Origin: a virus
Taxonomy: Duplodnaviria; Caudoviricetes
Reading direction: 5' to 3' (one strand)
Virus record (IMG/VR): IMGVR_UViG_3300013121_000017
Location: 160,001 to 224,000 of that record
Length of the DNA stretch: 64,000 bases
Positions within the stretch are counted from its first letter, which is position 1. Each line of letters opens with the position of its first letter. The position numbers and the translations under genes were made by a program. The notes beneath the pieces are model-generated. The model saw only the letters and a program-made list of their open reading frames with translations. It was not told where the DNA came from and searched no databases. Positions 2,514-31,904 of this stretch are shown piece by piece.

Positions 2514-2894
2514 ATGCCATCAAAATCCCCCGAGAAGAACCGAGAGTACCAGCGAGCATGGTTTGCGAAGCACAAGGAAGTCCAAAAAGCTCGCAACAAA
2601 GACAACCGCAAGAAGAAGCTGCAATGGTTTTCCGAATACAAATCAACTCTGAAGTGCGTTAAGTGCGGCGAATCTCACGTCGCCACGCTTGACTTTCACC
2701 ATCGCGACCCGACTATAAAAGAAGACGGAATCGGCCTCCTGATACGGAGAGCCTGGAGTATCGAACGGATACTCGAAGAAATCGCCAAGTGCGATGTGCT
2801 TTGCAGCAACTGTCACCGGAAGCTACACTACGAGGAATGCACTGGACAGTTTGCTTATCGAGCGGTAGCTGACGGCCAGCACGCAGCCTTATAA
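2514..2894 (+). CDS. HNH endonuclease
   Basis: CVKCG..LDFHHRDP..KCDVLCSNCHRKLH. Confidence 0.85.
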   Translation: MPSKSPEKNREYQRAWFAKHKEVQKARNKDNRKKKLQWFSEYKSTLKCVKCGESHVATLDFHHRDPTIKEDGIGLLIRRAWSIERILEEIAKCDVLCSNCHRKLHYEECTGQFAYRAVADGQHAAL

Positions 2895-2947
2895 ACTGCT
2901 TAGGGTCTGATAAACCCGAGAAGTGGGTTCGACTCCCACCCGCTCGA
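2859..2947 (+). tRNA. tRNA with UAU anticodon (nominally Ile) and long variable arm; CCA not encoded
   Basis: Acceptor CGAGCGG/CCGCTCG+A; D stem GCTG/CAGC; anticodon arm GCAGC-CTTATAA-ACTGC; V arm GGGT/ACCC; T arm GTGGG-TTCGACT-CCCAC. Confidence 0.8.
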
Positions 2948-3016
2948 CTTAACTCCCTTGCCCTCTACTTCAAACACCCGCTCGTCTTCCTATATACCGC
3001 AAAGGAAGGTGAGCGG

Positions 3017-19458: not shown

Positions 19459-19636
19459 GTCGCACCTCGCCTTTGGCCTTCCCGGTCACCTTCAGCTTAT
19501 GTAGACGCGCACCCGCCTCTAGCGAATTCGCCAGTTCGGAGTCCGACATAACCTCAAGAGAGGCAATGTACTCGGATTCGGTTTGCATGTCTAGTTCCCT
19601 TCTTTCAAAAAGCGCTCTTGCCAGGAGAGCAGCCAT
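19361..19636 (-). CDS. Small hypothetical protein (start may be 19588)
   Basis: ORF upstream of the 18787 gene; TATAAT-like sequence upstream on the minus strand. Confidence 0.4.
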   Translation of the reverse strand: MAALLARALFERRELDMQTESEYIASLEVMSDSELANSLEAGARLHKLKVTGKAKGEVRRGRSIQHPSSVRDDRRGNSGVPAFAAMAEADC

Positions 19637-19753
19637 GACGTATTATACCACAAACCCGTCTTCTCCTTCAAGACGAAGACAGGGTTCCCGTCCATGTTAC
19701 GCGCCTTCATGACTAGATGCAAAAGTGTACAGTAGTGTACACGTCATTTGGAA

Positions 19754-19782
19754 TTGACGACGTAAAACATGGGGACTACACT
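19754..19782 (+). promoter_or_regulatory. Sigma70-like promoter
   Basis: TTGACG-N17-TACACT. Confidence 0.65.
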
Positions 19783-19830
19783 ACCACTACCGACACTACC
19801 GACTACTACCGACTACTACCCAACTACTTC
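19780..19830 (+). repeat. Short ACTACC(G) tandem repeats
   Basis: ACTACC at 19780, 19786, 19795, 19805, 19815 plus a degenerate copy. Confidence 0.85.
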
Positions 19831-20282
19831 GACTCGGAGTGCATCCGCCTAAAGATGCCTTGTGCCTACCGTGGCTAGTACCCGCTGTTGTAGGTGCATG
19901 TCAAGCCGTGCGGCTGAAACCTGTGAGGGGCTTCGCTCTACTTAGCCAAAGAAAAGGTGTCGGCGTCCTGCGCCGGCATGGATCGGACCACCGGGGCCAA
20001 TCCTATCCTCACAAGTGTTACGAGGTCAGCGGCTGACCACCCCCTAAAAAAGCTGTCGGGGGGCTTGTACTGTCGTCTCGTCACTTTAGGCTCACTTTCT
20101 TCGTGATCCGTCGAGCCGCGAAGTCTAACAGACGGGTAATGCTTGAACGCATAAGCGACGGTTTGGTCAGAAACGTTCCAGTAGCACAAAAAACAGGTAC
20201 GCATGCTCAGAGTACCCATCCTGGGTAATCTCCAAGGTATGCCTTTGCAGTAGGAGTGGGTTCAATTCCCACTCCATTTTTT
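19789..20282 (+). ncRNA. Candidate ~490-nt structured noncoding RNA
   Basis: Promoter upstream, many hairpins, terminal hairpin GGAGTGGG-TTCAATT-CCCACTCC plus T run, no convincing ORF. Confidence 0.55.
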
Positions 20283-20478
20283 ACTTGCAAAGTCAACTCC
20301 CTTAGAGACAGCCACCCGGTATGCGCAGAATAAGATTAGAAGGGAAAAACCCGAACAGGTGTACACTCCCCTTCACTCCCCTCACACACCCGTATCTATT
20401 CCTATCTCCCCTTGAGTGCGGACTGGTGAAGTGGCCTGGAATCGCCTATGATGGTGAGGACATCATGAGGCGAGAAAA

Positions 20479-21819
20479 TTGGATAGCACCTACACCGAAC
20501 TCAGTTTCCTGTTGAATGCTGCGACGAAAGAGGGGAAGGCGATCTACCTTCACCTTGAACCGGCGGTGTGGGACATTACGGACCCGAAGTCGGAAAAGAA
20601 CCTTGCTGTCTGCACGCCCGAGTCTCGCTTCACGATCCCTTTGGTTGACAATCTGCCGTTCATTTTCGCGGCACTCAAGCATTCAATCCTGGCCGAGGGT
20701 CGCATCGTCATCGGGTGGGATCTCAAGCCGATGTTCTCATGGTTCAAGAGGAACCTCAAGAATGCCGATCTGCCCAAGCTGAAATACTTCGATTTGAAGT
20801 TGCTGGAACACTACTCGGGTGTGAAGCTGGCAAAGCCAGCGACGTTTGATGAAGCTCAGACCCGCGTCAATTCGGTAACGAAGCAGGACAACTGGACCCA
20901 GGCTACGACCATCTGGCAGAAGGTGATGAAGCCTTTGGCCATGACGGTGATTCCGTCCATCGAGTGCGAAGGCGTCTTGAACATCGAGCGTGAGGCCCGT
21001 GTACACCCGTGCTACGAGATTGAAGCCCAGGAGAACGGGCGGATGTCTTGTACGGCTGCGTTCCAGTGGGGCGTCAATGCCTTGACCATTGGCGATGAGC
21101 TTGGCTCAAAGCTCAGACCGCGTCACCTTGATGATGTCTTCATGTACTTCGACTACCAGAACATGGAAGTCGCGGTGTTGCAGTGGCTGGCCGAGGATGA
21201 CGACCTTGGCGAGATCCTGGCCGGCGATGCCGATGTGTACGAGACTTTGTTCAAGAGGATCATCGGCGGTCAGCACCAAAATGCGCGTAAGTTCGCCAAA
21301 AGTTTCTTCTTGCCGACTATCTATGGTATGTCGGCATCGGGGCTTGCTGAGAAATGCAAGCTGCCGGAACGGCTCGCTCAGACTGTCATCCACCGTCTCA
21401 ACGAGCAGTTTGCGAAATCCTTCCGTTATGTCGAACGCTTCCAAGAGGACGCCAAACAAGGCGTCGTCCGTGACCACTTCGGGCGTAAACGTTTCTTTTC
21501 AGATGCGTACCACAAGGCCCGAAACACTGCCATCCAATCCCCGGCCACGGCAATTTGCCTTGAGCGATTAGTCGCTCTACACACACTTAATGTCTCCCCT
21601 GTCCTGATGTCGATTCACGACGGTTTCGTTGTGTCGGCTAACCCCAGGAACGTCACCGACGTGTACATGGCGGTGAAAGAGTGCCTGCAAGCCGAGTCAA
21701 GCTTGGCTCCGGGCCTGAAGTTGAAGGTGTCTTGCAAAGCAGGACGTAGCCTCGCAGACAAGGAGATGACGCCTATAATTGCACATGGTTCCCCTACGGT
21801 CCCAGAAGGAGAAAGTTGA
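20479..21819 (+). CDS. Short family A DNA polymerase with degenerate exonuclease and apparent thumb deletion
   Basis: GRMSC; motif A FDYQNME; motif B RKFAKSFFLPTIYG; NTAIQ; motif C IHDG. Confidence 0.85.
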   Translation: MDSTYTELSFLLNAATKEGKAIYLHLEPAVWDITDPKSEKNLAVCTPESRFTIPLVDNLPFIFAALKHSILAEGRIVIGWDLKPMFSWFKRNLKNADLPKLKYFDLKLLEHYSGVKLAKPATFDEAQTRVNSVTKQDNWTQATTIWQKVMKPLAMTVIPSIECEGVLNIEREARVHPCYEIEAQENGRMSCTAAFQWGVNALTIGDELGSKLRPRHLDDVFMYFDYQNMEVAVLQWLAEDDDLGEILAGDADVYETLFKRIIGGQHQNARKFAKSFFLPTIYGMSASGLAEKCKLPERLAQTVIHRLNEQFAKSFRYVERFQEDAKQGVVRDHFGRKRFFSDAYHKARNTAIQSPATAICLERLVALHTLNVSPVLMSIHDGFVVSANPRNVTDVYMAVKECLQAESSLAPGLKLKVSCKAGRSLADKEMTPIIAHGSPTVPEGES

Positions 21820-30695: not shown

Positions 30696-30776
30696 GGTCT
30701 TTACAAGTCAGGGGTATTGGACGATTATTGTGGTTGTCACGGAGACGTGACGCCCTGTCATGTTTGACGGGGCCAA

Positions 30777-30836
30777 CCGACTACTACCGTCTCCACTACC
30801 GTCTCACTACCGTCACACTACGAAAGGACTACCGTC
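30777..30836 (+). repeat. ACTACCGTC repeats in the SSB leader
   Basis: Copies at 30783, 30795, 30806, 30828; the last lies between the SD and ATG. Confidence 0.85.
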
Positions 30837-31904
30837 ATGGCCAAGATCGAATTCGAGGCATTGGACCTCAACGAGATCGCCAACGAAGCACAGCGGGCCA
30901 ACACCGACCCGCGCCAGAAGAAGGGCAACGCCGACTACTTCTTCATGGAGAAGGATGGCTATGCCATCATTCGCTTCCTCCCCAAGATCAAGGGAACCCG
31001 CTTCTTCCAAGAGACGCGGATACACGCCCTCAACAGCGGCTCCAACAAGCGTCAATTCCACTGCACCCGTGTCCTGACCAAGAAGCCGGACGGCAAGACC
31101 GTCTGGATGCCGCCCCAGGACGGCCCGGACTGCGTCATCTGCAAGTATTACAACCACCTCTGGCAGAAGGGCGACCGCCTCTCTGGCAAGGCGAAGGAAG
31201 ACATGCAGAACGCGGCTCGCAAGCTGCGTCCCTACGAGCGGTACTACTACAACGTCATCGTTCGTGAGTACCTCAACCCCACCACGAAGAAGGTCGAGAA
31301 GAACGCCGGCCCGCTCATCTTCTCCTGCGGCAAGGAACTGCACGCCAAGATCATGACCGCTATGGTCGGCGACACGCAGACCGGCATCAAGAAGCTCGGC
31401 GACATCTCGCACCCGGTCACGGGCCGCGACTTCCGCTACGTCAAGAAGACGGTCACTGGTTCGGGCGGCATGCAGTACGCCAGCTACGACCAGTCCACGT
31501 TCGAGGATGTCTGCCCGCTCGGCTCGGACGACGAGATCCAAGACTGGATGGGCAAGCTCCACAACCTCGCTGGCCTCCGCAAGCTGGCCGACGAAGCGAC
31601 GATGAACCGCGCCCTGAAGGTCCACCTGGGCGTTCTGCCGCCGGAAGACGACGACTTCGACTACAGCCAGTTCGAGGGCGGTTCCGCCGGCAACGGCGGT
31701 GAGTCCGAGTTCGCGGAGATGGACCGCAAGTCCACCTCCACCACCGTGGCAGTGACCGAAGCCCCGCCGGCTGCCAAGAAGCCGCTGGTCAAGCAGGAGA
31801 AGACCGAGAAGCCCGTCTCCGACAAGAAGGAGAAGGGCGCACCGCTCGATCTCGCCGCCGACCCGGAGTTCATGGCGGAACTCGACAAGCTCGACAATGA
31901 ATGA
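30837..31904 (+). CDS. gp32-like single-stranded DNA-binding protein
   Basis: IIRFLP, C..C.IC, RYYYNVIVR, GRDF, YDQS.F, acidic C-terminal tail. Confidence 0.85.
   Translation: MAKIEFEALDLNEIANEAQRANTDPRQKKGNADYFFMEKDGYAIIRFLPKIKGTRFFQETRIHALNSGSNKRQFHCTRVLTKKPDGKTVWMPPQDGPDCVICKYYNHLWQKGDRLSGKAKEDMQNAARKLRPYERYYYNVIVREYLNPTTKKVEKNAGPLIFSCGKELHAKIMTAMVGDTQTGIKKLGDISHPVTGRDFRYVKKTVTGSGGMQYASYDQSTFEDVCPLGSDDEIQDWMGKLHNLAGLRKLADEATMNRALKVHLGVLPPEDDDFDYSQFEGGSAGNGGESEFAEMDRKSTSTTVAVTEAPPAAKKPLVKQEKTEKPVSDKKEKGAPLDLAADPEFMAELDKLDNE

Follow-up and report, generated by a model that had tools for sequence, protein, structure and literature searches.

A large structured RNA encoded upstream of a compact family-A DNA polymerase gene in huge phages

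The subject of this work is a stretch without protein-coding genes, located directly upstream of the gene for a compact family-A DNA polymerase (PolA) in an uncultured virus. The window analyzed here, i.e. the whole piece of DNA under study, comprises 64,000 nucleotides (nt) and corresponds to bases 160001-224000 of a 261,680-bp IMG/VR virus contig, which we attribute to a huge phage because at this length it is rated only about 52% complete by CheckV. The stretch lies at a divergence point, between a leftward operon (a gene for a protein of 223 amino acids (aa), glpX and others) and a rightward replication module that encodes PolA, a 185-aa protein, a NUDIX protein and a DnaB-like helicase, with a gene for a single-stranded DNA-binding protein (SSB) of the gp32 family about 10 kb further on. 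We show that this stretch encodes a non-coding RNA about 540 nt long, which probably begins near position 19789 and extends through a conserved 3' box to at least 20327, and that the RNA founds a previously undescribed family, encoded upstream of the compact polymerase in several clades of huge phages. We have very little doubt that this is a genuine, structured RNA, that it is new and that there is a link between it and the polymerase gene. The features of the locus are collected in Table 1.

Table 1. Features of the RNA locus and of the associated genes (positions of the window)
Feature	Position	Strand	Basis or remark
Conserved gene, 75 aa	19361-19588	-	begins with the ATG at 19588 rather than at 19636, where the 91-aa open reading frame (ORF) starts
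Leftward promoter TTGAAG-N18-TATAAT, TG before -10	19642-19671	-	consensus scan, 10 of 12 matches; both hexamers conserved in relatives
Palindrome TGTACA-GTAG-TGTACA, candidate operator	19726-19741	.	8 of 10 relatives share it; single occurrence in the 261-kb contig
RNA promoter TTGACG-N17-TACACT, sigma-70 type	19754-19782	+	consensus scan
G-poor unstructured 5' tail, five ACUACC(G) heptamer-type repeats about 10 nt apart	19780-19836	+	alignment of close relatives
Folded core, helices H1-H16	19837-20231	+	RNAalifold, pair counts, controls
Helix H1, closes the core	19837-19840 with 20205-20208	+	RNAalifold
Four-way-junction domain: AACCUG, H5 (19922-19928 with 20007-20013), H6, H7, H8, GAGGUCA	19918-20028	+	
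Pseudoknot PK2, 5' strand ACCGGG, loop of hairpin H8 in the junction	19990-19995	+	complementary to CCCGGU of the box
Hairpin H12 (CCCCC/GGGGG), loop UAAAAAA-GCUGUC	20040-20063	+	stem covaries, C-G/U-A 5:5
Clamp, 5' strand UCUCCAAGG	20229-20237	+	helix surrounds the variable region and the hairpin at 20253-20282
Terminator-like hairpin, 8 bp, loop UUCAAUU, and U6	20253-20282	+	consensus scan
3' box CUCCCUUAGAGACAGCCACCCGGUAUGCGCA, 31 nt	20297-20327	+	nearly invariant in 11 copies; unique in the contig
Box: clamp, 3' strand	20300-20308	+	
Box: pseudoknot PK1, 3' strand GACAGC	20307-20312	+	
Box: pseudoknot PK2, 3' strand CCCGGU	20315-20320	+	
Compact family-A DNA polymerase (PolA) gene	20479-21819	+	Pfam PF00476, 98.8 bits
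gp32-family SSB gene	30837-31904		Pfam, 30.6 bits (cut-off 26.8); PHROG 1192, E = 7e-20

Fold and extent of the RNA

Relatives of the locus were obtained by searching with the polymerase protein and by contig look-ups, and two motif scans contributed three extra copies; a single-protein locus scan of IMG/VR returned no relatives. With duplicates removed, the clade of the window, which we call group A, comprises 10 distinct full-length copies (that of the window and nine others) and one truncated at the 5' end. The polymerases of group A are 58-82% identical to that of the window, the contigs share the order of genes, and between the leftward gene and PolA each has a gap of about 1 kb without any called gene. 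These gaps align as long invariant blocks split by hairpins that differ in sequence yet are still paired. The plus strand of the window folds at z = -2.4 relative to shuffled sequences, compared to z = -1.25 for the minus strand, and RNAalifold run on the 10 distinct copies yields 105 pairs in 16 helices, of which 36 pairs carry compensatory changes. In the alignment 95.7% of the cells are paired, as compared to 36-42% when the partners are slid by one to three columns; double-sided changes occur at 36 pairs versus 7-13 in the slid controls, and none of the 500 column shuffles reached any of the observed measures. The dense structure noted in the initial annotation of the locus is thereby confirmed. 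No ORF is conserved in the RNA across the relatives, and the variable columns, sorted by codon phase, number 90, 96 and 92, as would be expected of a non-coding RNA.

As judged from the comparative alignment, the predicted fold comprises at least 16 helices and is characterized by a long-range closing helix, a four-way junction and a strand of the 3' box that would lock the domains together. Several stems picked out in the initial annotation recur in it: GCATC/GATGC is helix H2, TGTGAGG/CCTCACA is helix H5 and does enclose three hairpins (H6-H8), GGCTC/GAGCC is a variable hairpin within H14, and ACCC/GGGT of the stem TACCCA/TGGGTA is helix H16. Two other elements of the original description proved not to be conserved, namely the UUCG-capped hairpin, instead of which GGCU...AGCC bears an invariant loop of 11 nt, and the local hairpin GGTCAG/CTGACC, which is replaced by the long-range helix H11 (CUGACCA with UGGUCAG, 20033-20039 with 20164-20170; compensatory changes at four of the seven pairs). 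Within the four-way-junction domain, ACCU of the AACCUG motif may pair with AGGU of GAGGUCA. Loops and junctions remain invariant although the polymerases of the phages have drifted apart to 63% identity, which indicates a tertiary fold or an interface with a protein. At position 20058, the G6 run of the 3' strand of H12 is one G shorter in contigs from three wastewater RNA libraries but complete in the contig from a DNA run; this is probably strain variation.

The RNA had initially been thought to end at about 20292, in an 8-bp hairpin followed by a run of T. The hairpin and the T run are indeed there, but they probably do not mark the 3' end of the RNA, as they are situated inside a covarying helix and are followed by strands that pair with upstream segments. 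The 3' box starts fifteen bases past the T run, and it belongs to the fold, because its partners in the clamp, in PK1 and in PK2 covary with it. In the clamp, CCUUANAGA of the box pairs with UCUNNAAGG (20229-20237), the segment directly after H16, and at the fourth pair four copies have C-G, six have U-A and one has G-C. In PK1, GACAGC of the box matches GCUGUC (20052-20057), in the H12 loop, with perfect complementarity. Both pseudoknots are invariant within the close relatives, and the covariation test for them came from distant relatives (see below). The possibility that the box is a repeated phage promoter was ruled out by its uniqueness in the 261 kb. An alternative pairing of GGGGGR with UCCCUU of the box is conceivable, but it was set aside, as it is invariant and competes with the covarying H12.

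A hairpin with a U-rich tract is found at the site of the putative terminator in 8 of the 11 copies, with a different sequence in each, and a shorter isoform of about 495 nt that ends at this hairpin may be formed. In three wastewater RNA libraries and one DNA library, contigs span parts of the region at a depth of 2-8; those from the RNA libraries run across the terminator-like hairpin to 20369-20410, which gives a weak hint of terminator read-through, and the same contigs show that the phage is present. Near the stops of these contigs, between the box and PolA, some 50 nt are rich in C and poor in G (20367-20415, CACUCCCCUUCACUCCCCUCACACACCC...); this stretch resembles a Rho loading site, and its sequence is not conserved in the relatives.

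The loop of the terminator-like hairpin had been noticed for its likeness to the T-loop of tRNA, and one could consider a divergent tmRNA or another tRNA-like RNA on the strength of a 17-nt match to the T-arm of the tmRNA model (RF00023). This match scores 15.2 bits relative to a gathering score of 47, and the locus contains neither an acceptor stem nor a tag frame; ARAGORN reports no tRNA, no tmRNA and no tag peptide there. Moreover, the loop sequence occurs only in the window and in one near relative, with the hairpin and its loop different in all other copies, so that the comparative data refute the idea: the T-loop is a chance likeness, and we regard a tmRNA-like identity as practically untenable.

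At the 5' end the initial annotation fared well. The promoter it proposed was found in our consensus scan, and the TTGACG -35 element and a TAnnnT -10 element at a distance of 17-18 nt are conserved in the relatives; transcription would start at about 19789. Likewise, the unstructured 5' end with ACUACC repeats is present in every close relative, in four to six copies (group A). In two loci, L004 and L005 (at about 2300-2370), additional ACUACC repeats have taken the place of hairpin H2 and of the 5' half of H1, so that this lineage either can do without these two helices or has substitutes for them. The whole element is present in a single copy in the contig.

A family shared by distant clades of phages

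A covariance search with the 4227 models of Rfam 15, which include RNase P, SRP, 6S, group I and group II introns, GOLLD, ROOL, OLE and HEARO, found no family match at the RNA locus in the window, either at the gathering score or at E-values up to 10, apart from the chance likeness to the tmRNA T-arm, and nothing in the loci of nine relatives or in the RNA of the more distant group B described below. The initial failure to fit the RNA to the RNase P, tmRNA or intron consensus is thereby borne out, and the suggestion of a new phage RNA is strongly supported, as we are dealing with a conserved, non-coding RNA that covaries, is preceded by a promoter of its own and belongs to no Rfam family. A blastn search with the gap against 50,697 GenBank phages gave no match, literature searches revealed no polA-associated RNA motif, and no such annotation is found in GenBank phages. 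Three loci returned by our scans (L015-L017) and 19 bacterial or archaeal matches to an 18-mer were discarded as chance: they fall in coding DNA, about 17 would be expected by our estimate, and nhmmer sees the motif only. The carriers of the family are uncultured huge phages from wastewater, lakes and soils.

We also have to consider whether the RNA might be unrelated to the polymerase. It could be a self-assembling RNA particle similar to ROOL or GOLLD or, with a host factor such as Rho, Hfq or a defence protein as its target, a decoy or sponge, which owes its position only to an intergenic site that is transcribed early. The size, the density of helices and the invariant loops recall orphan large RNAs of bacteria and phages, and the tail, about 55 nt rich in C and poor in G that have a YC dinucleotide approximately every 10 nt, looks as though it could serve as a Rho-loading site. 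However, the ROOL, GOLLD, OLE and HEARO models gave no match even at E up to 10, the adjacency to PolA persists across clades, and the tRNA neighbourhood typical of ROOL and GOLLD is missing. We therefore regard this explanation as very doubtful.

In a distant set of 80 IMG/VR loci the polymerases are only 35-46% identical. The sequence profiles and the covariance model of group A gave no match in these loci, but many of them have gaps of 600-900 bp that are free of ORFs and contain clade-specific conserved blocks. Group B consists of the loci L085, L090, L102, L115, L116 and L120; nhmmer joins L094, L098 and L074 to it at E of about 1e-8, and model R2 joins L105 and L062. The same order of motifs is found in groups A and B: AACCUG with a four-way junction of three hairpins, GAGGUCA, an A-rich run with GCNGNC, and finally the box, which in the distant clades reads G(A/U)C(A/G/U)GC..C(C/U)CG(G/U)U and is located 100-340 nt before the polymerase gene. 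Across the clades, PK1 is GCUGUC/GACAGC (group A), GCUGAC/GUCAGC (group B), GCCGAC/GUCGGC (L094, L098 and L074) or GCAGAC/GUCUGC (L062), with the 5' strand always 110-144 nt past the AACCUG anchor. PK2 occurs as ACCGGG/CCCGGU, AACGGG/CCCGUU, ACGAG/CUCGU and ACCGAG/CUCGGU, with two covarying positions, and the junction pair is ACUU/AAGU in L074 versus ACCU/AGGU in all others. RNAalifold applied to the six group-B sequences predicts 26 compensatory pairs and found, unaided, a version of PK1 extended to 10 bp. The characters that we propose as diagnostic of the family (AACCUG with the four-way junction, GCNGNC complementary to GNCNGC of the box, an H8-type loop complementary to CYCGKU, and a position upstream of a compact PolA) are present in group A, in group B, in L094, L098 and L074 and in L062; in L085 and L102 the PK1 match is only shifted or partial. 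A group-B profile run against the 261-kb contig gives a single weak match (E = 0.17), which falls on the box of the window in the right orientation. We conclude, on the basis of position, architecture and covariation rather than a significant profile score, that groups A and B are one old family; it is deep, since the four-way junction and the covarying pairings of the box recur upstream of polymerases that are only 35-46% identical.

The position of the RNA is equally conserved. PolA is always downstream and on the same strand, both in the contigs of group A and in the loci of group B, where five of the six copies recovered by motif scan are followed by the polymerase gene and the sixth runs off the end of the locus. 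The adjacency survives the change of every other neighbour, with the locus heading the replication module. It is kept across clades with differing upstream neighbours, which argues for a functional tie between the RNA and the polymerase. There is an exception to the adjacency: GenBank has a single phage record with this type of polymerase, LR756511.1, and there a coding region directly precedes the gene. The RNAs of group B begin about 30-40 nt before the first hairpin, without the ACUACCG tail. Between the box and PolA, L007 (2696-2932) and, in the same place, L011 carry a conserved 78-aa gene on the minus strand, and L006 has an insertion of about 270 nt (2730-3000) with a CxxC...H-like (HNH-type) stretch.

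Given this constant position, the RNA could be regarded as a cis-acting leader of the replication operon, i.e. the 5' part of the PolA transcript that acts by attenuation, by put-like antitermination or on the stability of the mRNA. Apart from the strand and the location directly upstream of PolA, the order seen in group A (promoter, structured RNA, intrinsic terminator, replication genes) is what one would expect of such a leader; it resembles the arrangement pR-nutR-tR1-O-P of phage lambda and that of HK022 put. Contigs from the RNA libraries that cross the terminator, as well as the lack of an evident terminator in group B, also agree with transcription into PolA. On the other hand, the fold needs the box, which is transcribed past the terminator, and for this reason the full fold would be unable to decide termination at the hairpin; group B retains the fold without any terminator; a convergent gene (L007, L011) or a long insertion (L006) may separate the box from PolA; a conserved TATGAT element resembling a -10 box stands just before PolA; and the box, 100-340 nt from the start of PolA, is clear of its ribosome site. 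On balance we consider a leader unlikely, and the promoter of its own together with the 78-aa gene between the box and PolA in L007 and L011 argue for an independent unit rather than a simple leader.

Surroundings of the RNA gene

The initial annotation was right to describe a long non-coding gap at a divergence point, but its left border has to be moved: the gap starts at 19589, because a conserved 75-aa gene occupies the minus strand up to 19588. This gene has been overlooked by gene callers in most of the relatives and has no match in Pfam or PHROG. The leftward promoter would serve both the 75-aa gene and the 223-aa gene and form the left edge of a divergent control region, and the palindrome between the two divergent promoters is a candidate operator of some regulator. 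A lone TGTACA half-site is present near 20362, and such a half-site lies about 40 nt past the box in several copies. The sole tRNA of the window, a tRNA-Ile (UAU) at 2859-2948, is 90 nt long and contains a long insertion (31 bases unaligned in the Rfam alignment).

The true start of PolA is likely to be about 30 nt further in than that of the ORF, as the related proteins have 431-436 aa. The contig also encodes a DnaE-type alpha subunit of polymerase III (Pol III), and no family-B polymerase is found in its 261 kb, which makes the compact PolA an accessory polymerase. The match to Pol III alpha is split over two open frames about 4.5 kb apart (231009-236396, outside the window), which cover profile positions 3-98 and 100-259; this suggests that the gene is split or interrupted by an element such as an intein, an intron or a homing endonuclease. 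The cumulative GC skew of the contig is V-shaped, with a drop over 20-140 kb, a bump of +390 at 145-155 kb (which may be an inverted or acquired block), a flat part up to about 181 kb and a steady rise afterwards.

An accessory family-A polymerase behind a long transcript calls to mind a primer of the ColE1 RNA II type, where the host RNA polymerase would make the transcript, the structure would hold it on the DNA near the box and PolA would extend its 3' end before the DnaE-type replicase takes over. The length of about 500-550 nt, the strong sigma-70-type promoter and the constant adjacency to a family-A polymerase, accessory as Pol I is for ColE1, are in agreement with this scenario, and transcripts made by RNA polymerase are the starting point for other enzymes of family A, namely T7 DNA polymerase, Pol I on ColE1 and the mitochondrial Pol gamma. 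The RNA also lies at a divergence point, where the cumulative skew is lowest (180-181 kb) within the finely sampled 170-190 kb before it rises steadily, and some of its segments are complementary to the DNA just past the U-tract 3' end, so that RNA-DNA pairing would produce the same covariation. However, the global minimum of the skew is at 138 kb and not at the RNA locus, there is no AT-rich unwinding element and there are no iterons beside the box, the RNA pairs with the sequence of the non-template strand, unlike RNA II, and the clamp includes G-U pairs. Furthermore, neither a terminator nor a U-tract precedes the box in group B, no antisense promoter of the RNA I kind was found within the RNA (the scan detected promoter-like sites on the minus strand only at 19671-19642 and 19593-19565), and the ornate, deeply conserved loops go beyond the needs of a primer. 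Thus, we think it improbable that the RNA is primarily an origin-linked primer.

Possible function and comparison with known systems

The initial annotation had suggested a replication primer, a cofactor of the polymerase or a protein sponge, and each of the three is conceivable. The reading that we favor tentatively, with a probability of roughly 0.4, is that of a trans-acting ribonucleoprotein of the replication module, which in group A has an SSB-binding tail. In the 261,680 bp of the contig, clusters of ACTACC are found at only two sites, the tail of the RNA and the leader of the gene at 30837, i.e. the SSB gene. This leader (30700-30836) contains two hairpins followed by four or five ACUACCGUC repeats that reach up to the AUG. 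The gp32 proteins of phages T4 and RB69 repress their own mRNA by nucleating on a pseudoknot and then spreading cooperatively over more than 40 nt of an unstructured leader with repeated UUAAA (PMC535899). Because the SSB leader of our phage has a T4-like layout and the tail of the RNA carries the same motif as that leader, binding of the SSB to the tail can be proposed as a specific prediction.

According to this model, the pseudoknotted core would be a binding surface for a replication protein, with the neighbouring polymerase as the first candidate, and in the clade of the window the single-stranded ACUACCG tail would be a landing pad for the gp32-type SSB of the phage. The same repeats in the SSB mRNA would presumably act as an autoregulatory operator, so that the RNA might compete with this mRNA for free SSB, or might carry SSB. 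In either case, the RNA would tie the supply or the activity of SSB and polymerase to early transcription.

Several points weigh against this proposal. The contigs of the metatranscriptomes are no deeper on the RNA than on its flanks, and carry-over of DNA is possible. The SSB leader of the one relative checked retains only ACCGAC and CACUAC remnants, and as the ACUACCG tail is confined to the clade of the window, SSB binding is not the core function of the family. The hidden Markov models (HMMs) and covariance models (R1, R2) of groups A and B miss each other, save for the weak match on the box, and group B, with no terminator before PolA, fits a leader as well as it fits a separate RNA.

It is tantalizing to consider the RNA as a partner of the compact PolA itself, the core of which recruits the polymerase and which is then used as a primer or even as a template. 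The former mode would amount to initiation at a phage origin similar to that by RNA II and Pol I, and the latter to synthesis from the CA-rich repeats in the manner of telomerase or DRT systems. We find such a partnership quite unlikely; if it exists, a viral family-A polymerase would for the first time be seen to act in an RNA-dependent manner, through an RNA that is dedicated to it and inherited along with it. The idea of a telomere template was examined and dropped: clusters of GGTAGT are absent from both strands of the 261-kb contig, and the ends of the contig are ordinary sequence.

Bacteria and their phages rarely encode large non-coding RNAs of intricate fold, and the discovery of new classes, such as RNase P, tmRNA, OLE, GOLLD, ROOL and HEARO/omega RNA, has opened new biology. 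In the present case, the comparative support is unusually clean for so few sequences, the architecture is idiosyncratic in that one 3' strand ties together two distant loops, and the fixed polymerase partner raises the question of whether a dedicated RNA participates in starting or regulating the replication of giant-phage DNA.

The comparison with the known systems reveals partial likeness to each. With ColE1 RNA II the RNA shares a folded transcript of about 550 nt, a strong promoter of the host type, a tie to a family-A polymerase and an upstream G-containing segment complementary to a sequence about 250 nt downstream. It differs in the lack of an antisense RNA I and of an RNase H site, in pairing with the RNA-sense strand, in an internal terminator-like hairpin, in a more ornate and more deeply conserved fold and in the absence of any sequence or model match, and the origin here is only putative. 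As in HK022 put and in Bacillus EAR, a structured RNA lies between an early promoter and the first terminator in group A; however, those elements have 70-120 nt and act before the terminator, whereas the conserved fold described here extends past it, and group B has no terminator. GOLLD, ROOL and OLE are similar in their size of at least 500 nt, in their many helices and invariant loops and in being borne by phages or prophages. The RNA described here has a four-way junction and a 3' strand engaged in two long-range helices, is situated beside a polymerase gene rather than tRNA genes, is confined to huge uncultured phages and matches no covariance model.

Telomerase RNA and the non-coding RNAs of retrons and DRT2 offer a different kind of analogy, since there too a polymerase gene immediately follows the RNA gene, with both on one strand, and single-stranded CA-rich repeats accompany a core with long-range closure, a pseudoknot and a multi-way junction. 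In our case, however, the enzyme is a family-A polymerase and not a reverse transcriptase, GGTAGT repeats are missing from the contig and the distant clades have no tail. Finally, in the operator of gene 32 of T4 and RB69 a folded element also stands beside a G-poor unstructured run of at least 50 nt made of short repeats. In our RNA the repeats come first and the fold second, the reverse of the operator, the motif is not that of T4, the distant clades lack the tail, and the tail covers no ribosome-binding site, with no ORF or start codon after it. Nonetheless, the combination of a fold with more than 40 nt of repeated unstructured RNA, which is characteristic of the gp32-type operator, is found in the tail at 19780-19836, and the ACUACCG of this tail occurs also in the leader of the phage's own gp32-family SSB.

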